This document shows positions 2,854 through 14,626 of a stretch of DNA of 31,762 bases, piece after piece. The stretch's first letter is position 1, and the number at the start of each line of letters is the position of its first letter. The position numbers and the translations under genes are program-made. Source of the stretch: Nitrosomonas europaea (GTDB lineage Bacteria > Pseudomonadota > Gammaproteobacteria > Burkholderiales > Nitrosomonadaceae); contig NZ_FUWK01000034.1 of the NCBI RefSeq assembly GCF_900167395.1, forward strand, positions 1 through 31,762, in the 5' to 3' direction. Below the pieces are notes generated by a model, which was given only the letters and a program-made list of their open reading frames with translations, searched no databases and was not told where the DNA came from.

Positions 2854-4089
2854 TCAGAAACGGTAGGAAGCCTGTACAGCGAACAGATTCCAGTTTTTTC
2901 CGGTATGGGACATATCGGGATTATCTAGCGGAGATAGCCAAGCCGTGCCGTTGATCCGATGATATTCTGTACTCAACATGATGGCAGGCGTAATATTCCA
3001 GCGTAATCCTACCGTGATATCCTTAGCGTAGTAATTATGTGCCGGGTATAGGTAACCGGTACTGGCAGAAAATTTTTTACCACTACGGTCTTTCCTATTA
3101 GTGAACAACAAATCATAACGCAACACTGCTTCCCAGTTTGGATAGAACCGATAGACGCCTTGCAGATAAAAACTTTCTCCCGTAAAACTTTGCTGAAAAG
3201 CTGCATGGTTACCAAAATCTTTCCATGCGAGATGGCGTAGCGCATATTCAGACGTTATGCTCCAACGCTCTGCGTTGTATTGAGCGGATAAAATTAAAGG
3301 GGAGAATCTGAATGAGCCATTAAGTAGAGTATCATTGTAACCTGGGCTATACCCAACATTAGCTTGGGCTCCACTTATTGCCAGACGGAGTTTTCCATCT
3401 GCCTGCTCATAAAGTATCCGACCAATATATGATAACTTTGTTTTAAGATCGCCACGGTGTTGTAATGATCGTAACACCGATATCTCAGTATCATGACCGT
3501 CTACTTGGGGAAAAGCAGCTCCAAATTGTACGGTAATATTTCCCCAGTCCGCGCGCGATTCTCCGTATACCTGAATCCCATCTGAAGCTAGTGCAAGATT
3601 GCGAGTACGATCGAAATAGATTGACTGAGGCAGCAGTATGCTCGGGCGAGTAAATGGTACATCGCGTGTATCGTTATAAAACCCGAATGGATTCTTCATC
3701 CTGCCCAGACGTATGCCGATTTCAGCTGCAGGTGTATTGGCGAAATTATAATCTAGAAAACCGAAATCAATGTGGATGCCACCGTTGCTGCCTTCTCCAG
3801 CTCTGCGATGGAGTAATTGACCGGATAATTGCAGTTTTGGTGAGGGACGCAAAGAAGCCGTCAGGCCAATTTCCCGGAAATCGAGACTGCCAGAATCGTT
3901 ACTGTGACCAAAAAAATTGTTCTTGTTCGTCTTGATGTAGCCCTGGCTCAGAAAACCATTCAGTTTGAACAGATCCAGGTTTTGTAATTTAGGCAGCTCT
4001 TCCGCCAGAACGGATCTGGCCAGAAAAATCAGTGACAGGGCTGAGCTGCCTAAAAAGAAAGCTATAGTTGAAAATCTGCTGTTACTCAT
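2854..4089 (-). CDS. Outer-membrane beta-barrel (porin-like) protein of unknown family
   Basis: It has a signal peptide (MSNSRFSTIAFFLGSSALSLIFLARSVLA), alternating beta-strand-like sequence and a C-terminal ...QASYRF aromatic terminus typical of OMPs. I prefer the start at 4089 because its ATG sits inside the GATGAGTAA stop region of the upstream gene (8-nt overlap). The track start at 4116 is the alternative. Confidence 0.65.
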   Translation of the reverse strand: MSNSRFSTIAFFLGSSALSLIFLARSVLAEELPKLQNLDLFKLNGFLSQGYIKTNKNNFFGHSNDSGSLDFREIGLTASLRPSPKLQLSGQLLHRRAGEGSNGGIHIDFGFLDYNFANTPAAEIGIRLGRMKNPFGFYNDTRDVPFTRPSILLPQSIYFDRTRNLALASDGIQVYGESRADWGNITVQFGAAFPQVDGHDTEISVLRSLQHRGDLKTKLSYIGRILYEQADGKLRLAISGAQANVGYSPGYNDTLLNGSFRFSPLILSAQYNAERWSITSEYALRHLAWKDFGNHAAFQQSFTGESFYLQGVYRFYPNWEAVLRYDLLFTNRKDRSGKKFSASTGYLYPAHNYYAKDITVGLRWNITPAIMLSTEYHRINGTAWLSPLDNPDMSHTGKNWNLFAVQASYRF

Positions 4090-4564: not shown

Positions 4565-5356
4565 TTATTCCGATATATAAACATTATCGGTATACGCTGT
4601 TTTAAGCGTTTTCTGATGTATGCAGGCCAGGTTCATGGGCCATATTCTTCCGTGATCGGTAATAAGCTCCCAGAGTGAACGATGATCCTGATACATTCGA
4701 TCAAGTAAATCAGGCAGATAAAGATAATAAGGAGTACGAAGACCATGATAATCGGCTGGTGGGCCGATTGGATTCATTTGTAAGCTGTAAAAACCTAGTA
4801 ATTTGTTTAAAGCTGGCTCCATGGCCGAAATTAAATGGTAGATATTATTTCGTGCACATAATTGTATAAGTCCGACAACAAGCCCGAGCATCGGATGCGG
4901 AAAGCGACGGCGTTCCTGTGCTTTGCATCCTATTTCAGTAGATTGTGATAGCATATTGCGCTCGCCTTTTCGTTTGAAAAAATCGCTGAGAATAGCAAAG
5001 CGCGATACTTCAGTAGTATGTTTCCGAGACGATGAATCCAGAACAAAGCCAGGATAAAAATGAGTGTTGAGCTCTGTCGGAAATTTATCCATAGGATCGA
5101 GCGGATTGGGCAGGATCAACCTGGTTGTGCCAATGAAAGTATTGGTTGGCCGATGGCGCAATAAAAAATGGATTGAGTGACTGTCATATTGATCACTCTC
5201 CAACTCGTTTGGATAATTGTTAGTGTCAAACCCGGGAATGACATTGTGAACACACAAAATCCGATAGCGTAAATCGAACACCGTTTTAAGTAATTCCGGT
5301 GTGTCGGCATCGATGATTTCGAAATACTGATGAAAAGCTGCTTCGATATCGTTCAT
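4565..5356 (-). CDS. PEP-CTERM/exosortase system-associated acyltransferase (GNAT-fold, LuxI / N-acyl amino acid synthase-like; TIGR03694-type)
   Basis: Family-typical N-terminus YFEII.A.TPELL..VFDLRYRILCVH...ESDQYDSHSIHFLLRH...IGTTRLILP. An EVSRFAI motif is analogous to the autoinducer-synthase core. An AGGAAA RBS lies 5' of the ATG. Confidence 0.75.
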   Translation of the reverse strand: MNDIEAAFHQYFEIIDADTPELLKTVFDLRYRILCVHNVIPGFDTNNYPNELESDQYDSHSIHFLLRHRPTNTFIGTTRLILPNPLDPMDKFPTELNTHFYPGFVLDSSSRKHTTEVSRFAILSDFFKRKGERNMLSQSTEIGCKAQERRRFPHPMLGLVVGLIQLCARNNIYHLISAMEPALNKLLGFYSLQMNPIGPPADYHGLRTPYYLYLPDLLDRMYQDHRSLWELITDHGRIWPMNLACIHQKTLKTAYTDNVYISE

Positions 5357-5454
5357 ACTTTTCCTTGATCAGGCTGTATTTAAGAAGATCTGAGATTCAG
5401 ATCAGATTTTATTACTGGAATCAGTTTCCAATTCAGGGAATATATGAACGATAT
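5346..5454 (-). promoter_or_regulatory. Structured 5' leader of the acyltransferase gene, with an anti-start-codon helix enclosing two hairpins
   Basis: A perfect 12-bp inverted repeat joins ATATCGTTCATA (5346-5357, covering the start codon at 5354-5356) to TATGAACGATAT (5443-5454). Inside it are the hairpins GATCTGA-gat-TCAGATC (5387-5403) and TGGAA-tcagt-TTCCA (5416-5430). Confidence 0.5.
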
Positions 5455-5572
5455 GACTTTATATTTTTTCCCTGGGCACCGGCATCATCGTTATTTGTTA
5501 TATTTTTCCGTATATTTACATGTTATTTAGCCTGAATTCAGACAAACATGTCGTTAAAATAAAACGTACTTT

Positions 5573-5601
5573 ACTATACTTGTGTCGTCAAAATATGACA
5601 A
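5573..5601 (-). promoter_or_regulatory. Candidate sigma70 promoter for the acyltransferase operon
   Basis: The minus strand reads TTGTCA-17 nt-TATAGT (-35 at 5596-5601, -10 at 5573-5578). This would give a leader of about 210 nt that contains the structured element. Confidence 0.4.
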
Positions 5602-5729
5602 GCCGATGTTTGTTGAATAATGGTTGACTGTTTTCGATATCGGGAGCTCATTTATCGAATGACCACGGCTTTTTTACCGGTATCAATTCTCCCTTTTATT
5701 TACTGCCGAAATTCAGAATCAGATAAAAA

Positions 5730-7589
5730 TTAAACTTTTATCGGGTGATGCTGTTTGAACCAATATTCCAGCATCATCAGCAGCCATACCATCGTGCCGT
5801 GATAACTGGCATGTTCATGAAGATGCTGATCAAGCAGCTGGTCGATGAAATCGGTGCGTATGATGTTGCGTGATTTGAGGTCACTCAGACTGTCTGCAGC
5901 AATTTCCCGCAAAGGTCTGTGTGTCTGGAGCCAGACACCGAACGGCAAGCCAAACCCCTGTTTTTGTTTGGTAATGATCTCATCCGGTAAAAAACCACGT
6001 AACGCCTGTTTAAAGAAATAACGCAACTGCGTTCCTTTCAATTTCTGTTCAGGAGGAAGCGCGAGAGAAAAAGCGAGTATTTCATCATTAACAAACGGGA
6101 AAGCCACTTCCATGCCGGCCAGATGACAGGCCTGGACAACTTTTGGGAAATCATTGTCTGCCAGTGTGAATTTCCAGTCGAAGGCAAGCATGCGGTTGAT
6201 CAGGCTGCGTGCATGAGACACATCCTGATAGGTTCGTTCAATCAGCAAAGCGGGTTGCGCTGTATCGATCTTTGCCAGTAATTCCGGTGAAAATACAGTT
6301 TCAAACCCATAATGTGCCAGCAGATTATAAGTCTCCATGCGATGAGGCATGGGAACCGTTGCCTGTGCGACATAGCTTCGCGCCTTGCGCAGCAGTTTGG
6401 GTCCTTTGTTCTCTGGAAGAGACAAAATAAAGGGGGAAAGCAGGTAATTTCTCAGGGGTGCCGGGATTTTGTCGTAAAGTGAAAAAATATATTGTTTTGC
6501 GTAACGTACATTACCACCGAACAGCTCATCACCCCCATCGCCACCGAGTAGCAAGTCGAGTCCGTCATTTCTGGCCATGCGCCCGCAGTAATAAGCCGGA
6601 AGCGCCGATGCATTACCAAAAGGTTGATCGAAGACCGAAGCAATCAACGGGATCGTTTCTACGACATCGTCTGGTGTGACATAGTACTCATGGTGATCGG
6701 TCGCGAAATGCCGGGCGGCAATACGTGCGTAATGCATTTCATCGTAGCCGGTGGCTTCAAAGCCGATTGAATAGGTTTTGGCGGGTTCACCCGTGACTTC
6801 TGTCAATATCCCTGCCAGAGTGGAACTGTCTGTCCCCCCGCTCAGAAATGTACCTGCTTTCTGACCCTGTACCGCTTCACTGACACTTTTTCTGAGCAGG
6901 GAGAGAAATTCCTGTTGAAGCTCGGGGAAGGGGCGTTTTATATCTTCATCAAACCGGATTTGCGTATAACGGCCGATTTCCGTGTGGCCATCGTGGAAAT
7001 GCAGATACTCACCAGGAAGCAGGCGCTTCTGGGCCAGATAGATGGTATCCGGCCCCGGTATCATGTGAAAGTAAAGGTAGTTGAGCAGCCCTTGCGGATT
7101 GATTTCAGTATTGGCCCGGGGATGGGTGAGCAGGGCATCGGCAGAAGTGCCAAATAAAATTCCGTCGTCACCCAGCGACTGGTAATAAAGTACGTGTGTA
7201 CCCAGTGGATCGATGGCCAGAGCAACTTCACGTGCATGGCTGTCCACGATGCAGCAAACGAATTCACCAGCGAGCTCGGAGAAGGCTTGCCTGCCTTTCT
7301 GCTTCCACTGATCTGCAAGTGCCGCTGCCATTCCTCTGGCATCGATGGCTGTCTGCAGATCTGTATTCCGGGATTTTATCCTTCCCCAGATCCCTACCAG
7401 TAAGCCTTCTTTTTCATACAGATGCGAATGGCTTGTTTTTGCGGCGACGGAAAGAGCGGCATTGCCCTGTACCGCTGTCTGCACAGGATTGCTGTCAAAA
7501 CGAATCAGCGAACCGGTCATGCGATCAATGATCTGCTGATTTTCGATTGCCAGGTGATCTGCTCCCAGCCAGCCACATATTCCGCTCAT
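5730..7589 (-). CDS. Asparagine synthetase-like glutamine amidotransferase (exosortase A system-associated amidotransferase 1 type, TIGR03108-like)
   Basis: It has an N-terminal Ntn glutaminase domain (MSGICGW...) and a C-terminal PP-loop synthetase domain (FLSGGTDSS). A GAGGAG RBS precedes the ATG. Confidence 0.85.
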   Translation of the reverse strand: MSGICGWLGADHLAIENQQIIDRMTGSLIRFDSNPVQTAVQGNAALSVAAKTSHSHLYEKEGLLVGIWGRIKSRNTDLQTAIDARGMAAALADQWKQKGRQAFSELAGEFVCCIVDSHAREVALAIDPLGTHVLYYQSLGDDGILFGTSADALLTHPRANTEINPQGLLNYLYFHMIPGPDTIYLAQKRLLPGEYLHFHDGHTEIGRYTQIRFDEDIKRPFPELQQEFLSLLRKSVSEAVQGQKAGTFLSGGTDSSTLAGILTEVTGEPAKTYSIGFEATGYDEMHYARIAARHFATDHHEYYVTPDDVVETIPLIASVFDQPFGNASALPAYYCGRMARNDGLDLLLGGDGGDELFGGNVRYAKQYIFSLYDKIPAPLRNYLLSPFILSLPENKGPKLLRKARSYVAQATVPMPHRMETYNLLAHYGFETVFSPELLAKIDTAQPALLIERTYQDVSHARSLINRMLAFDWKFTLADNDFPKVVQACHLAGMEVAFPFVNDEILAFSLALPPEQKLKGTQLRYFFKQALRGFLPDEIITKQKQGFGLPFGVWLQTHRPLREIAADSLSDLKSRNIIRTDFIDQLLDQHLHEHASYHGTMVWLLMMLEYWFKQHHPIKV

Positions 7590-7789: not shown

Positions 7790-9019
7790 TCAGATCAGGA
7801 CTTCCAGCGAAGCAGGGTGACTGAGAAAAGCGGTGGGGCTGGCAGTCAGCCCGTAGGCTCCCGACTGGAACACGACGACCAGATCCCCGGGTTCGGCCCT
7901 GGACAGTTCCATCCGGTCGGCAAGCAGATCCAGCGGCGTACAAAGAGGTCCTACTACTGAAACGATTTCGGTTTCATCGATTTTCATTTTATTGCCAATG
8001 GCAACCGGATAATTTTTGCGAATGACCTGGCCAAAATTTCCGGATGCCGCCAGATGATGGTGCAGGCCGCCGTTGGTGACTAGAAAAGTCTGTCCTCTCG
8101 ATATTTTTTTTTCCAGTACGCGGCAAACATAAATACCTGCTTCTGCCACGATGTATCGCCCCAGTTCGATCACGAACCGGATAGCTGAGAATTGAGAGGG
8201 AATCTCTGCCAGCAACCGTTGCAGATTGGTTCCCACAGCATTCAAGTCCAGCGGGCTCTCACCGGGGAAATAAGGTACGCCAAACCCGCCTCCGATATTG
8301 ATGGCACGAACAGGTACGGGTGAGGTAGAAGCAAGTTGTAAACCCAGTTGCAGTGTTTTTTCATGGGCTTCCCGCAAGGCTTCGACCCGGAGATTCTGTG
8401 ATCCGCTGAAAATATGCAATCCCTCAAAATCGAACCTGAGCTGTGCGATACGTTGCAGTACTGCCGGAACACATTCAGCATCGATACCAAACTGTTTGGA
8501 ACCTCCTCCCATTTTCATTCCGGAAGATTTCAGCTCGAAATCAGGGTTGACCCGTACTGCGACTTTGGGCTGGAAACCGGTCTCTTCTGCCAGTTGCGCA
8601 ATCGTTTCCAGCTCGTACTCGGATTCCACATTGATGACGATACCCGCTGCAATGGCACATATCAGTTCCTGACGACTTTTTCCCGGCCCTGCAAAACTGA
8701 TGTTTTCGGGTGTAATGCCAGCATCCAGTGCCACTTTCATTTCGCCAACCGAAGCCACATCCATACCATCCACCAGCCCGGCCAGATGCTGTACTACGGC
8801 GGGCATAGGGTTGGCTTTCATGGCGTAATGCAGATGAATACCTGCCGGTAAATGCTGCCTGAGGAATTGAATACGTGCAGAGATCAGCTTGCGATCGTAA
8901 GCATAGAAAGGGGTGGTTCCAATACGTTGTGCCAGGCGCGTGAGTGGAAGATCGCCGATGACGAGACAGTGGTTGCGTATCGGAAACTGGGTCATCGGTG
9001 CATGTTTGGGATGCGTCAT
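7790..9019 (-). CDS. PLP-dependent decarboxylase, Orn/DAP/Arg decarboxylase fold (exosortase A system-associated type, TIGR03099-like)
   Basis: It has the PLP-lysine motif HYAMKANP, the substrate motif GPLCTPLD and the C-terminal motif SGAYG. Its start overlaps the ligase stop (ATGA at 9016-9019). Confidence 0.85.
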   Translation of the reverse strand: MTHPKHAPMTQFPIRNHCLVIGDLPLTRLAQRIGTTPFYAYDRKLISARIQFLRQHLPAGIHLHYAMKANPMPAVVQHLAGLVDGMDVASVGEMKVALDAGITPENISFAGPGKSRQELICAIAAGIVINVESEYELETIAQLAEETGFQPKVAVRVNPDFELKSSGMKMGGGSKQFGIDAECVPAVLQRIAQLRFDFEGLHIFSGSQNLRVEALREAHEKTLQLGLQLASTSPVPVRAINIGGGFGVPYFPGESPLDLNAVGTNLQRLLAEIPSQFSAIRFVIELGRYIVAEAGIYVCRVLEKKISRGQTFLVTNGGLHHHLAASGNFGQVIRKNYPVAIGNKMKIDETEIVSVVGPLCTPLDLLADRMELSRAEPGDLVVVFQSGAYGLTASPTAFLSHPASLEVLI

Positions 9020-10599
9020 GATTCTCCTGCCTGGAAAGCCTGCTGAAATTCACCAGCCAGCATTTTCCGGTCTATTTTTCCATTCGGATTACGGGGCAGA
9101 CTGGTTTGTCTCAATTCGATCAAAGCGGGTTGCATGAAAGCAGGCAAGTGCTGTTTGCAAGCCGATTGCAGCACATCCCGGTCGAGCGCGAATCCGGTTC
9201 TGGGAACGGCCACGACCACGATAGCCTGGCCGAGTGTAGGGTGGGGAACCCCGAAAGCGGCCGCTTCAGCAACTTTTTCGGTTGCATAAATGACTTCTTC
9301 CACTTCAGTCGGGCTGACGCGGTAGCCGGAGGTTTTGATCATATCGTCGCGTCGGCCGATGAAATACAGATAACCTTCATCATCCATGCGCACCGTATCA
9401 CCCGACCAGACCGCAAGTTCGGGAATGGTCAATCCGGATTGACGGGGAGTCAGCGGCCGGAAGCAAGCAGCCGTTTTATCCGCATCGTTCCAGTAACCCA
9501 GCGAAACGAGCGGCCCGCGGTGTACCAGTTCACCCGGTTCACCCGGTGCGCAATGGGAACCATCCTCGCGCAGTACCATGACTTCGGCATTAGGAATCGC
9601 TTTGCCCATGGAATCCGGTCGTTTGTCCACTTCCCCGGGAGGGAGGTAAGTTGAGCGAAAGGCTTCGGTCAGACCATACATCAGAAAAATCTGTGTATCG
9701 GGTAACGCACTGCGCAAATGTGCCAGAGTCGCGCGGGGCATTGCGCCGCCCGAATTAGTGATGTAGCGCAGACTCTGCGCATCTTTCCAGTCCAATTGCG
9801 CCAGCTGCGCCCACAATGGCGGCACTGCAGCCAGTCCGGTCACCTGTTCCTGTTTAACCGTGGTGAGGATATCGCGCGGCAACAGGTAATTCATCAAAAT
9901 GGCAGTGGCTCCGGTGTAAAACGCAGTATTCAGTTGATTCAATCCATAGTCGAAGCTGAGCGGCAACACTGCCAGTATCCGATCATCAGGCCGGTTATTC
10001 AGATACCGGGAAACACTTATGGCGCCTGTCACCAGATTGCGATGGGAGAGCACCACTCCCTTGGGTTTGCCGGTACTTCCCGAGGTATACAAAATTGCAG
10101 CCATATCGCTGTCGATGCAGTCCGGTAACCGTGCAGCATCTGAAAGTGTCTGTGTCTGTCTCCATGAAACGACATTCAATCCGGGAAGTGATGCTTTGTG
10201 CAGATCACCGGTGATGATCACAGTATGCAGATCATGACATTGCGGTAATACCGGGCTGAGCAGATCGAGTCTCTCGGCAGAGGTTATCAATATCCGGACA
10301 TTACAGTCTTTGAGGATATAGGCGACCTGTTCGGCTTTGAGCAGCGGATTGACGGGAACGAACGCGCCTCCTGCCGCGGATGCGCCAAACAGGGCAATGA
10401 CCGTTTCGAGTCGTTTCTCGAGATAGACGGCCGAACGTTCTCCGCGACCCAGCCCGAGCGTATGCAAAGCGCTGGCAATCGATTGCACTGCTTCAGATAA
10501 TGCCGCATAGGAGAGATGCCGTTTCTGATCGATCAATGCTGTGGAATCGGGATACCGGGCAGCTGACTGATAAATCAGCTCATGAAAAAGATTGGACAT
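9016..10599 (-). CDS. AMP-forming acyl-CoA ligase / adenylating enzyme (exosortase A system-associated type, TIGR03098-like)
   Basis: It has the AMP-binding signature LYTSGSTGKPKGV, plus YGLTE and a C-terminal PRNPNGKIDRK. Its length is typical of the ANL superfamily. Confidence 0.85.
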   Translation of the reverse strand: MSNLFHELIYQSAARYPDSTALIDQKRHLSYAALSEAVQSIASALHTLGLGRGERSAVYLEKRLETVIALFGASAAGGAFVPVNPLLKAEQVAYILKDCNVRILITSAERLDLLSPVLPQCHDLHTVIITGDLHKASLPGLNVVSWRQTQTLSDAARLPDCIDSDMAAILYTSGSTGKPKGVVLSHRNLVTGAISVSRYLNNRPDDRILAVLPLSFDYGLNQLNTAFYTGATAILMNYLLPRDILTTVKQEQVTGLAAVPPLWAQLAQLDWKDAQSLRYITNSGGAMPRATLAHLRSALPDTQIFLMYGLTEAFRSTYLPPGEVDKRPDSMGKAIPNAEVMVLREDGSHCAPGEPGELVHRGPLVSLGYWNDADKTAACFRPLTPRQSGLTIPELAVWSGDTVRMDDEGYLYFIGRRDDMIKTSGYRVSPTEVEEVIYATEKVAEAAAFGVPHPTLGQAIVVVAVPRTGFALDRDVLQSACKQHLPAFMQPALIELRQTSLPRNPNGKIDRKMLAGEFQQAFQAGES

Positions 10600-10641: not shown

Positions 10642-12000
10642 CTATTTGAGCCCGTGACGATTCATCAGGTCATAAAGAGTGGGGCGGGTAACCCCTAGAA
10701 GCTCTGCTGCCCTGGCAACATTGCCATTTACCCGTGCCAGCACTTTGATGAGCATCTCGTGTTCAGCCTTGTCTCTGACTTCACGCAAGGTGACTGGCGC
10801 AAAACTATCGGCTGCCGGTTGTAATCCGAGATCGGCAGCAGTGATTTGTGAGCCTTCTGCCATGATGACTGCGCGTTTGATGCAGTTTTCGATTTCGCGG
10901 ATATTTCCCGGCCAGGAATAGCTGCCGATTGCATCCAGTGCATCCTGGCTGAAATTGAGGGATTGGCGTTTTTCTTTTACCCGGAACTGGTTTTTGAAGT
11001 GATGCGCAAGTAAGACAGCGTCGCCGATACGATCGCGAAGCGCCGGAATATGGATACTGATTTCACACAGACGATAATACAAATCCTCGCGGAAGGTACC
11101 GGCCTCGATCATTTTTTTCAGGTTCTGGTGGGTTGCGCAGACGATTCGTACATCTACCGGGATCAGCTCCCTGCCACCGATGCGTTCGATGACGCGCTCC
11201 TGCAGGAATCTCAGCAGTTTTGCCTGTAACGATAGCGGCAAATCACCGATCTCATCCAGGAAAAATGTACCTCCCTGTGCCAGTTCGATTTTGCCTGGTG
11301 TCTGTTTGACTGCTCCTGAGAAGGCACCTTTTTCATAGCCAAACAACTCTGCTTCCAGCAGGGATTCAGGAATGGCCGCACAATTGACTGCAACCATGCG
11401 TTTACTGTTCCGGTCGCTCAACTGGTGAAGTGCCTTGGCCAATACTTCCTTGCCGGTTCCACTTTCACCCAGCAGGGTGACCGTAACGTCGGAAGACGCG
11501 ATACGCTCGATTTGCTGGCATATTTTGACCATACCAGGATCATTGGTGATGAGTCCGGGAATGGCAGTGCTTGAAGAAGATTTCAACAGTTCGCGATTTT
11601 CGCGCTGCAACCGGTGCAAATAGAACGCCCGGTTTACGATCAGGCTGAGCACGTTGGCATCGAGAGGTTTCTGGTGAAAATCATATGCACCCATATTGAT
11701 TGCTTTCAGTGCATTTTCGTGATTCTGGTTGCCCGTCAGCACGATTACCTTGGTATCAGGTGCCACGGCAAGAATCTGCTGCAAAGTTGCCAATCCTTCC
11801 GTTGCACCATCCGGATCAGGTGGCAATCCCAAATCCATGGTCACGACAGCAGGCTCATGCCGGCGGACTTGTGCAAGCGCACTTTCACGATCTGAGGCAA
11901 CAGCCACATTGCAATCATCGAAACTCCAGCGTAACTGTTTCTGGAGCCCTGGATCATCTTCTATTACGAGCAGTTTTTTTTGTATCTGATTTGCATTCAT
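10642..12000 (-). CDS. prsR: PEP-CTERM-box response regulator transcription factor PrsR (NtrC-family sigma54 enhancer-binding protein)
   Basis: The receiver domain has the characteristic MDLGLPPDPDGATEGL insertion. The AAA+ domain carries GESGTGKE, the sigma54-contact loop GAFSGA and FFLDEIGD. A C-terminal Fis-type HTH is present (AAELLGVTRPTLYDLMNRHGL). Confidence 0.8.
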   Translation of the reverse strand: MNANQIQKKLLVIEDDPGLQKQLRWSFDDCNVAVASDRESALAQVRRHEPAVVTMDLGLPPDPDGATEGLATLQQILAVAPDTKVIVLTGNQNHENALKAINMGAYDFHQKPLDANVLSLIVNRAFYLHRLQRENRELLKSSSSTAIPGLITNDPGMVKICQQIERIASSDVTVTLLGESGTGKEVLAKALHQLSDRNSKRMVAVNCAAIPESLLEAELFGYEKGAFSGAVKQTPGKIELAQGGTFFLDEIGDLPLSLQAKLLRFLQERVIERIGGRELIPVDVRIVCATHQNLKKMIEAGTFREDLYYRLCEISIHIPALRDRIGDAVLLAHHFKNQFRVKEKRQSLNFSQDALDAIGSYSWPGNIREIENCIKRAVIMAEGSQITAADLGLQPAADSFAPVTLREVRDKAEHEMLIKVLARVNGNVARAAELLGVTRPTLYDLMNRHGLK

Positions 12001-12244: not shown

Positions 12245-14626
12245 TCAATGATCCGCTCTGAATTCGGCCGGATGGAGATACAAAATCTGTTGTGCTGCGC
12301 CGGGCATGAATGATACTCGCCTTCCTGCCACCCAATCGGAATGACCGCTGCCGTAGTAAGGAGAAAGTGGATGGCCGCTCTGGCCTCCCGGCATTTCGAA
12401 ATAACCCTGTTCTTCCTCGCCAGGTGCCACGACGAAGCGCAGCGAAGCACCAAAATCGGGTGCCTGAACACGTGGCATGTGGTGATCGCCGGGTAACTGG
12501 TCGGCAGGCATGTTCAGCCATGCGGCAATCCATGACGGCAGGGCGCGACTGAACGGGTGCCGGATATCGGCGGTATTTTCTTCTCCCCAGTTGCGTGCCA
12601 CTATGCCGCCAGGCTGGGCTTGCATCTGTTCTGCTATCCGGCGTGCGCATGCTGCCAGCATGCTGTCCCAGTCACTGTCATCGGCGGGCAATAAATGAAG
12701 CGGCCGTTGTTCGATTAGTTTCCATACCGCATGTTCGGCCTGGCTAAGGCGTGGTATTTCAAATTCAGGATAATCAGATTTTACTTTGGCAGTTAAACCG
12801 CTGAGCACCTGTTTCATGACTTCGAGACGAAAACTGCGTACGATCCGGTAAGCAACTGATTGCACAGAAGCATGTCCGTTCCAGTCAAGCAGCACTTGTT
12901 GCATTTCGTTGCGCCATACGGTGGATGGTGTTTTTTGCAATATTTCATCCAATAGTTGCTTCCAGCGAGCGAGAAGCAGTGCACGATCATCCAGTTGGAT
13001 GGCGAGCAGATCTGAGGGTGAAAAGTGATCGTGCGCATATAATTCATCCCGGATCTGCCGGCTGCGGGCACCGAGCTCATATCCACCATCTCCCAGCTTG
13101 CTTAATAAGGCGCCATCGATCATTCTTGAATTGCCGTTCCAAAGGCGCATATCCGGTGGATTGATAACCAGCGGGTAATCAGCAGGTGCAAGCCAGCCAT
13201 TCCAGCCTGTAGACTGTTTGCTCCAGTCTGCAGGCAGTCCCGGATCATAGTTACCTGTGCGCTGGGGAATACGGCCGGCAATCGTCCAGGCGATATCCCC
13301 ATTTTTGCTTCCGGCAATGAAATTTTGTGCCGGGATACCCATGTTCCAAGCAATAGCTGCCGCTTTCTCCAGGTTGTCAGCCTGTTCCAGTTCGACGATA
13401 TCGAAATTGACCGCACCAGGCTGGTGCGCAGTCCAGACCAGTGCCAGAGGAGTACCGTCAAAATCCTGTGCAAGGATTGGTCCCCATTCGGTTTCGCGGA
13501 TTTCGAGGGTTTCGTCGGGCGCACCCCGCACATGCAATGTTTCACGCCATATTTTTACAGATTTCCATTCACCCTGGCTGATATAGCGAGCGGGATTTTC
13601 CGGATCGGGATTTACTCTGACCCAATCGGCAAAATCGCCGTAAGAATTGGTGAATCCCCAGGCGATATGGCGGTTGGAGCCAGCAACGATAGCCGGTGTA
13701 CCCGGAAGACTGACGCCGATCACATCGATCTTTTGGTTTGCATGTCTGGCATCCGGGTAAATCAGCCGGGTACGAAACCATAAACCGGGTACTCGCAAGG
13801 TCAGATGCATATCGTTGGCCACCAGTGCACTGCCACTCGTCAGGGGTCCTCCCACGGCAAATCCATTGCTGCCAACCGAGGGAGATTCCTGGAAACCGTT
13901 ATCCGCTAAAGCCTGTTTGCTGGTGGAACGTAAATCGAAGTCGGTAGCAGAGGGGTAAGGTGGCCACTCAAAATAACTGCCGTCCAGTGGTGCATCCCAC
14001 TCGCCTCCACTGGCCGTCAGGAACCGATAGGCAGATTCCGGCAGGGAAGCATGCATCATCGACAATCCCAGTTCACGATCAAAGTTGTTTCCCTGCAGCG
14101 TCATGTACATGGCCAGTACGATCAGCAGGCTGTCTTCACTTTGCCAGGCACGGGGCATGGTTTGCGTAAGCAGGTAACCAAACTGTCTGATCCTGAGACT
14201 GTCCAGTCCCGTATTGACGCCATCCCGATAAGCCTCGAGCAAACGGAGCTGATCTTGTGGCAGTATTTTCAGCATGGTCTGTGCCCGGGCACGCATGCGA
14301 TGCACCCGCGCTTTGCGATCAGCCGGCAACGCAACCGTACCGAATAATTCTGCCAGTTCTCCGGCAGCCTTGCGGCGCATCAGGTCCATTTCCAGGAAAC
14401 GTTCCTGTGCATGGATAAAACCCAGTCCACGCGCCAGATCGAGCCGATTCCCGCCATTCAGCGTCACCGTGCCGAGAGCATCGCGTTCGACTGTTACGAT
14501 ATCGGTTAGCCCGGGAACGGATTGTTCTCCTTCATAAACGGGCAGGCTGCCTTTTAAAAGCGACCAAGCCGTAAGTAATATGACCATCACAAGTGCGGAC
14601 AGAAAAAACAGGGATTTACGCAACAT
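12245..14626 (-). CDS. Penicillin acylase family (S45 Ntn hydrolase), PvdQ/QuiP-like N-acyl-amide (AHL) acylase candidate
   Basis: It has a signal/anchor sequence (MLRKSLFFLSALVMVILLTAWS). The length of about 790 aa fits an alpha-spacer-beta architecture. A beta-subunit nucleophile context (GSNGFAVGG) is present. Confidence 0.8.
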   Translation of the reverse strand: MLRKSLFFLSALVMVILLTAWSLLKGSLPVYEGEQSVPGLTDIVTVERDALGTVTLNGGNRLDLARGLGFIHAQERFLEMDLMRRKAAGELAELFGTVALPADRKARVHRMRARAQTMLKILPQDQLRLLEAYRDGVNTGLDSLRIRQFGYLLTQTMPRAWQSEDSLLIVLAMYMTLQGNNFDRELGLSMMHASLPESAYRFLTASGGEWDAPLDGSYFEWPPYPSATDFDLRSTSKQALADNGFQESPSVGSNGFAVGGPLTSGSALVANDMHLTLRVPGLWFRTRLIYPDARHANQKIDVIGVSLPGTPAIVAGSNRHIAWGFTNSYGDFADWVRVNPDPENPARYISQGEWKSVKIWRETLHVRGAPDETLEIRETEWGPILAQDFDGTPLALVWTAHQPGAVNFDIVELEQADNLEKAAAIAWNMGIPAQNFIAGSKNGDIAWTIAGRIPQRTGNYDPGLPADWSKQSTGWNGWLAPADYPLVINPPDMRLWNGNSRMIDGALLSKLGDGGYELGARSRQIRDELYAHDHFSPSDLLAIQLDDRALLLARWKQLLDEILQKTPSTVWRNEMQQVLLDWNGHASVQSVAYRIVRSFRLEVMKQVLSGLTAKVKSDYPEFEIPRLSQAEHAVWKLIEQRPLHLLPADDSDWDSMLAACARRIAEQMQAQPGGIVARNWGEENTADIRHPFSRALPSWIAAWLNMPADQLPGDHHMPRVQAPDFGASLRFVVAPGEEEQGYFEMPGGQSGHPLSPYYGSGHSDWVAGRRVSFMPGAAQQILYLHPAEFRADH

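Follow-up and report, generated by a model that had tools for sequence, protein, structure and literature searches.

The window analysed here, a whole stretch of 31,762 nt of Nitrosomonas europaea DNA (contig NZ_FUWK01000034.1, positions 1 to 31,762), carries on its minus strand, within an exosortase A locus, the gene of an acyltransferase, and it is the 5′ leader of this gene that concerns us. A segment of the leader, part of a sequence block conserved in related Nitrosomonas loci, is predicted to pair with the Shine-Dalgarno (SD) sequence and the start codon of the gene in one long helix. The gene and the elements of its upstream region are listed below, in order of coordinates and hence from the gene back to the promoter.

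4565-5356, minus strand: acyltransferase gene, 263 aa, PEP-CTERM/exosortase system-associated, N-acyl amino acid synthase family (TIGR03694, E = 2e-88)
5346-5357, minus strand: downstream arm of the helix, UAUGAACGAUAU, covering position -1, the AUG (5356-5354) and codons 2-4 (Asn-Asp-Ile, the last one partial)
5358-5366, minus strand: SD region, AAGGAAAAG, with unpaired probabilities of at most 0.01 for G5364 and G5363
5387-5403, minus strand: 7-3-7 hairpin or palindrome GATCTGAATCTCAGATC, mismatched already in close relatives and absent in others
5406-5434, minus strand: GAATTGRAAA ... AGTAATAAAAT, at fixed spacing to the arm block, complementary to codons 5-12 and holding the window's non-conserved hairpin 5430-5416
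5433-5442, minus strand: extension of the helix inside the invariant CATATTCC, based on the minimum free energy (MFE) structure and on invariant columns 25-30 of the block alignment
5443-5454, minus strand: upstream arm AUAUCGUUCAUA (anti-AUG), with pair probabilities of 0.63-1.0
5457-5464, minus strand: ATATAAAG, invariant 5′ part of the block (columns 4-10 of the alignment), with no partner in the helix model
5573-5601, minus strand: sigma-70-like promoter TTGTCA-17-TATAGT, 10/12 matches, with a predicted start near 5566, upstream of both arms

The two 12-nt arms (read 5454-5443 and 5357-5346) are exactly complementary and separated by 85 nt, and the ATG lies inside the proximal arm, as the initial annotation of this DNA had claimed; the two enclosed hairpins that it described, GATCTGA/TCAGATC (5403-5387) and TGGAA/TTCCA (5430-5416), are present in the sequence as well, together with the SD. 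In the MFE structure the helix extends inward from the 12-mer through a U5442-G5358 wobble, through the pairing of an anti-SD UUCC (5440-5437) with GGAA of the SD (5364-5361) and through that of UGA (5435-5433) with UCA (5368-5366), and outward through the pairs C5455-G5344 and U5456-A5343. In total the predicted pairing spans some 22 bp, its duplex energy being -21.8 kcal/mol, and in the repeat search the inverted repeat grows to 20 nt at 85%. The sequence CATATTCC, which is invariant among the loci bearing the block, is itself complementary to the SD and the flank of the AUG. When the region 5330-5470 is folded, the MFE is -35.4 kcal/mol (z = -4.73), a value that none of 200 dinucleotide shuffles equalled, and the helix is also part of the MFE structure of a 288-nt leader. 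Across five transcript contexts of 153 to 531 nt the pair probability was at least 0.9 in 11 of the 12 pairs; the pair probabilities of the SD are 0.71-0.89, and the SD Gs and the AUG are predicted to be at most 2% unpaired. The suggestion that the leader is able to sequester both the SD and the AUG is therefore robust in silico in all five contexts, and an upstream leader segment that base-pairs with SD and start codon, as in a leader of the rpoS type, is what the folds contain.

For comparison we used a set of 49 related Nitrosomonas loci (individual loci are given by L numbers below). The block, which follows the pattern TATAAAR, 14 variable positions including the 12-nt arm, and YATTCY, was found in 27 of the 49, in each case exactly once, on the gene strand and upstream of the start codon, and a search of the 31.7-kb window for a second copy found none. 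Alignment of the intergenic regions of 18 lineages reveals conserved islands amid DNA that is otherwise unalignable between clades, namely, in order, (a) TTGTCA-17-TATAGT, (b) ATATAAAG-NN-arm-TATTCC, (c) GAATTGRAAA and (d) AGTAATAAAAT. Islands (b) to (d) are held at fixed spacing over about 60 nt without any indel across 16-18 lineages, and the stretch from island (d) to the SD is variable in both length and sequence. L014 and L043 keep islands (a), (c) and (d) but have lost the entire ATATAAAG-arm-ATATTCC unit to decay. Relative to shuffled controls, occlusion of the translation-initiation region (TIR) reached z <= -2 in 16 of 20 block-bearing leaders (the exceptions being L002, L016, L019 and L044) and in 0 of 16 block-lacking orthologs, and the probability of pairing between block and TIR exceeded 0.4 in 16 of the 20 leader variants. 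As judged from the alignment, purifying selection clearly acts on the block and, as part of it, on the upstream arm. The element is confined to part of the genus Nitrosomonas, and the perfect 12-mer is a derived version of it, the tightest, belonging to the window's own clade.

Both arms are probably transcribed, given the conserved promoter upstream of them. The only canonical and conserved promoter found in the promoter scan is the one that lies upstream of the distal arm; the same promoter was called in the orthologs L018, L046, L006 and L015 and is conserved throughout the 18-lineage alignment. Within and just after this promoter lies a conserved repeat, TATTTTRACGACA, seen as the direct repeat TATTTTGACGACA / TATTTTAACGACA at 5583-5595 and, 34 bp away, at 5549-5561 (minus strand); of the two copies one falls in the promoter spacer and the other just past the predicted start, both are conserved across lineages, and they are a candidate repressor or operator pair. 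No intrinsic terminator or attenuator (G+C-rich hairpin plus U-run) was found on the minus strand of the window. Leaders of the clade resembling N. eutropha and GH22 carry a terminator-like hairpin with a U-run on the gene strand, located after the conserved block and before the SD (696-712 of L018, 949-961 of L046); it is absent in the window's clade, and it might serve as an attenuator or mark the 3′ end of a small RNA derived from the leader.

Taken together, a mechanism can be outlined in which transcription would start at the conserved promoter near 5566 and give a leader of about 210 nt, whose 29-nt conserved segment (5464-5436) carries the anti-AUG (5454-5443) and the anti-SD (5440-5437). 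The ribosome-binding site would be transcribed about 85 nt later, upon which the helix of about 22 bp would form between the segment and the SD, the AUG and codons 2-4. Judging from the in silico data this helix would block 30S binding, and the acyltransferase would be poorly translated by default; its expression would presumably require that the upstream arm be held or removed, be it through binding of a small RNA (sRNA) or a protein, through processing of the leader or through a competing pairing. In the model, if transcription does proceed from the upstream promoter, the -21.8 kcal/mol helix will form over the SD and AUG and depress translation. We tentatively take the leader to be a clade-restricted, self-inhibitory 5′ leader of the known, rpoS-like kind, a reading that we consider quite possible.

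The rpoS leader of E. coli has a self-inhibitory stem that is opened by the sRNAs DsrA, RprA and ArcZ, a mode known as ‘anti-antisense’ activation. The analogy would lie in a distal segment of a long leader pairing with the SD and start some 70-100 nt downstream, in a block that operates by default and in a loop interior that does not serve as a sensor. Unlike the rpoS leader, that of Nitrosomonas has no known or predicted sRNA, Hfq site or opener of another kind; it has no sequence or family relationship to that of rpoS, and its predicted helix is near-perfect (12+4+3 bp) whereas the rpoS stem is imperfect.

A number of observations weigh against a self-inhibitory leader, starting with the repeat itself. 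When the window is dinucleotide-shuffled, 23% of the shuffles contain a perfect 12-mer inverted repeat with a gap of up to 120 nt (mean 0.31), and the real sequence has a second such repeat, at 3988-3999 / 4043-4054 (on the minus strand UUUAGGCAGCUC, 43 nt, then GAGCUGCCUAAA), in the 5′ part of a 420-aa open reading frame (ORF) just downstream of its overlap with a 151-aa ORF; window-wide, the initial judgement that such a repeat is very unlikely by chance was thus overstated. In predicted TIR occlusion the acyltransferase gene ranks first among 18 genes of the window, but narrowly (-23.4 vs -22.0 and -21.2 kcal/mol), two further genes being nearly equal to it. Since the 12-mer is common in shuffles and the TIR ranking is narrow, the interest of the helix rests on its position over the SD and AUG and on the conservation of the upstream arm. 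Moreover, ATATAAAG is among the most invariant parts of the block and yet has no partner in the helix, a protein-DNA site would also account for the roughly 60 nt of fixed spacing with a variable stretch after it, and transcription-start or 5′-end data for any Nitrosomonas were not found in the literature.

The comparative record of the pairing falls largely on the same side of the balance. All 12 pairs can form in the window, L001, L011 and L041, and 11 of 12 are of the Watson-Crick type in L003 and L013 (one mismatch each) and in L006 (one G-U); L040 has 10 standard pairs and two wobbles, L049 has 10 standard pairs, one wobble and one mismatch, and L018/L047 have nine standard pairs, two wobbles and one mismatch. 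Mismatches in the arm number two in L016, three each in L002, L019 and L046, four each in L015/L045 and L048, and five in L044, so that in L002, L019, L044, L046 and L048 three to five of the 12 positions are mismatched while ATATAAAG, CATATTCC and GAATTG stay invariant. Across 17 distinct constructs of block plus TIR the paired fraction of cells was 85.8%, compared with 85.5% after column shuffling (187 of 500 shuffles scored as high), and change on both sides was seen at a single pair; a G-C to A-U double change is carried by L006, L016 and L049. RNAalifold predicted 0 pairs on all 16 block-bearing leaders. In favour of the helix, it did recover the pairing without constraint on seven leaders of the close clade, where a single G-C to A-U double change is accompanied by six single changes compatible with wobble pairing, but the covariation term was +0.6. 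Substitutions were counted by parsimony on a nucleotide tree, on the leader side only and with the expectation set at the observed transition bias: starting from the paired state, 12.5 of 25 leader-side substitutions keep the pairing against 10.9 expected (p = 0.25), and for the 12-bp arm alone 6.5 of 14 do so against 6.4 expected (p = 0.68). This count replaced an earlier tree-based one that had given p = 0.013. Synonymous sites in codons 2-12 are unusually conserved (0.276 vs 0.489, p = 5e-4), a finding that we rejected as support for the helix because it is confounded by the mosaic history of the gene, in which, as described below, leader and early codons belong to a backbone and the gene body to a cassette. 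Conservation or covariation of the helix among orthologous leaders, which had been named at the outset as a point on which the proposal could fall, is thus not supported, the arms being conserved as sequence with no covariation, and the helix decaying in several lineages that keep the block. Coding and the SD hold the downstream arm fixed and so leave little room for covariation, whose absence is an absence of support that does not disprove the helix; as far as the sequences of related genomes go, there is no evidence of evolutionary selection on the pairing itself.

These same features bring in a serious rival, in which the block at 5464-5406 is read by a protein, either as a DNA operator, activator or promoter-proximal element or as single-stranded RNA, with the complementarity incidental or a late add-on and regulation mainly transcriptional or protein-mediated and independent of the helix. 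Though rather unlikely on the whole, it would explain the unpaired, invariant ATATAAAG, the fixed spacing and the tolerance of mismatches in the arm centre better than the helix does: ATATAAAG, CATATTCC, GAATTG and TAATAAAAT are conserved as sequence, at fixed spacing and with no indels over about 60 nt, the arm centre is more variable than its flanks without compensation, ATAT is repeated every 10-11 nt, and the regulator PrsR and a GGDEF-EAL protein are encoded in the locus. It would also make sense of a TTGRAA-N14-TAAAAT motif between the arms, conserved at fixed spacing, which would place a start near 5399 and exclude the upstream arm from the transcript. The 14-nt spacer is, however, non-canonical for sigma-70 and the motif was not called by the promoter scan, and we keep it as a putative promoter solely within this explanation; TATAAA (5463-5458) is likewise unlikely to be a -10 box, as it has no -7 T and no conserved -35 and is missing from the scan calls. 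The block is not repeated in the window, no binding protein can be named, and the helix would form physically anyway if the conserved upstream promoter is used. Nor is the block the PrsR-associated PEP-CTERM box, in which a 17-nt motif with TTTACA at its end is separated by about 63 nt from a sigma-54 -24(GG)/-12(GC) site located some 70 nt before the start (Haft et al. 2006, PMC1569441), since no TGGCAC-N5-TTGCW was found within 3 mismatches in 5357-5730. Box and block have in common that they are conserved cis-elements within long intergenic regions of exosortase/PEP-CTERM loci, PrsR being encoded 5 kb away in the present case; the block differs in that a sigma-70-type promoter is conserved in place of the -24/-12 site and in that the downstream gene encodes an acyltransferase, not a PEP-CTERM protein. 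The complementarity could also be a chance or historical by-product without regulatory meaning, for instance if the initiation region had once been duplicated in inverted orientation; the helix would then be avoided co-transcriptionally or simply tolerated. We hold this to be distinctly unlikely. The second repeat and the expectation of 0.31 per window would fit it, as would the mirrored SD-ATG-AAC-GAT that the plus strand shows (AGGGAATATATGAACGATAT vs AGGAAAAGTATGAACGATAT) and the preservation of pairing at a neutral rate by substitutions; against this, the upstream arm clearly evolves under purifying selection within the block, a random repeat is only a few percent likely to land on the SD and AUG, and TIR occlusion tracks the block across lineages. 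Structure at the initiation region affects translation, and -21.8 kcal/mol over the SD and AUG could hardly be neutral for it if both arms are transcribed.

That the leader is a ligand-sensing riboswitch, with an aptamer formed by a three-way junction that the 12-bp helix encloses, is very improbable, even though the window does have a three-helix topology and the long leader contains conserved sequence blocks. Both enclosed hairpins are not conserved past the closest relatives, the interior of the helix varies in sequence and from 72 to 105 nt in length across lineages, and a ligand-binding core of junction and hairpins with covariation was not found (0 RNAalifold pairs on 16 lineages), so the three-helix architecture that had been proposed is not supported, there being no conserved junction or aptamer. 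The initial annotation was right in recognising no known riboswitch class: Rfam 15 searched at permissive E-values gave no relevant family, the best match being MIR6445 with 26.5 bits (gathering threshold 100) in a set of plant miRNA and other eukaryotic miRNA/snoRNA models, which are chance matches to a long hairpin. An RNA thermometer that exposes the SD and AUG on warming, another of the options raised, is hardly credible. The helix is AU-rich, with only three G-C among its 12 bp, but its mean predicted probability, 1.0 between 10 and 28 °C, drops only to 0.99 at 37 °C and to 0.95 at 55 °C, with SD-AUG accessibility steady at 0.24-0.28, so that it is not predicted to melt at physiological temperature, and there is no match to ROSE or fourU. 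The Nitrosomonas leader shares with SD-sequestering riboswitch platforms and with thermometers such as ROSE and fourU an anti-SD UUCC that pairs with the SD and an occluded start codon, and differs from them in lacking a conserved aptamer or Rfam match and in a helix predicted to stay unmelted to 55 °C.

A further pairing bears on the fold of the leader. The segment CUGAAUUGGAAACUGAUUC (5417-5435, minus strand) is complementary to GAAGCAGCUUUUCAUCAG (5325-5343, codons 5-12) with -12.2 kcal/mol, an energy reached by 2.5% of shuffles, and pairing between the leader and codons 5-12 recurs at <= 5% of shuffles in 9 of 18 lineages, with -17.8 kcal/mol in L048. Since it would cross the 12-bp helix, the two would be alternative conformers. 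One could then read the roughly 60-nt block as a new cis-regulatory RNA found in ammonia oxidisers, toggling between the pairing of 5454-5437 with the initiation region and that of GAAUUGGAAACUG (5434-5417) with codons 5-12, with the switch set by a protein, an sRNA or a metabolite and gating translation of a hypervariable N-acyl amino acid synthase, which we regard as quite improbable.

Several other candidates were tried and rejected. A mobile element with terminal inverted repeats does not fit, the arm sequence being present at two sites of the window only and the block being single-copy and fixed in position in 27 loci, and a repeated operator does not fit either, with arm and block single-copy in the window. 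A small ORF mirrored on the plus strand (ATGAACGATATG..., with an SD-like AGGGAA) starts with ATG or GTG in some lineages, has lost its start in L002 and L044 and is not conserved in frame or length, TTTATAT being invariant at the nucleotide level; in the case of an upstream ORF on the gene strand (ATGATGCCG..., 5488-5459), L001 does not keep the frame. GGA sites of the CsrA type are conserved only in the closest clade. A pseudo-SD, CAGGGAA (5474-5468, minus strand), is a perfect 7-bp complement of the anti-SD UUCCCUG (5440-5434) and by its sequence could act as an anti-anti-SD that frees the real SD, a role that we rejected because the motif is found in the closest clade only.

The acyltransferase gene itself has a mosaic structure. 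Between the window and L011, identity is 97-100% over more than 1 kb on both flanks, in the leader and in the first codons, and falls to 57-76% from about +100 to +690, which corresponds to a diverged gene body at about 4660-5260 of the window (minus strand); L045 and L015 show the same contrast between flank and body. The upstream amidotransferase is 85-93% identical in all block-bearing lineages, whereas the acyltransferase is 60-82% identical, except for 95% in L001. On the evidence of these comparisons, the leader and roughly the first 30 codons are a conserved backbone, and the gene body is a mosaic, hypervariable cassette. This pattern is reminiscent of allele replacement as seen at pherotype or specificity loci, and it may deserve more interest than the helix. 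In L048 (N. eutropha, 1001-1012) the called start lies 9 nt (three codons) upstream of the conserved MN... start (MKHMNNLEAAF), giving two in-frame AUGs, the upstream one of which is outside the downstream arm.

The rest of the exosortase A locus, in which the acyltransferase is located, contains the following, besides a 151-aa PBP-like protein and a 420-aa protein of unknown function that are listed after the acyltransferase.

314-2824: PAS-GGDEF-EAL protein
5730-7589: Asn-synthase-like amidotransferase, upstream neighbour of the acyltransferase
7790-9019: decarboxylase
9016-10599: acyl-CoA ligase
10642-12000: PrsR, sigma-54-dependent response regulator, about 5 kb from the leader

A penicillin-amidase or PvdQ-like acylase at 12245-14626 (minus strand) adjoins PrsR in the same neighbourhood and may form with the N-acyl amino acid synthase a pair for the synthesis and degradation of N-acyl compounds. 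The closest relatives are a Nitrosomonas metagenome-assembled genome (95% protein identity) and Nitrosomonas sp. HPC101 (63%), and homologs of the acyltransferase are named N-acyl amino acid synthases by the sources of the family. A subset of these enzymes is linked to exosortase systems, with a physiological role described as unclear (PMC4897644). The label of signal synthase that had been given to this TIGR03694 acyltransferase is accordingly not established and was a guess.

It seems reasonable to regard the leader as a testable lead of a familiar kind and not as a new class, of interest mainly to researchers on nitrifier biofilms and on leader RNAs, as the mechanism itself is familiar. Should the helix act in the predicted way, translation of the N-acyl amino acid synthase would be off by default and a specific opener would be needed for its expression. 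This would, if true, provide the first handle on the regulation of an enzyme family of unclear physiological role, in organisms with a central part in nitrification and in the formation of flocs and biofilms during wastewater treatment.

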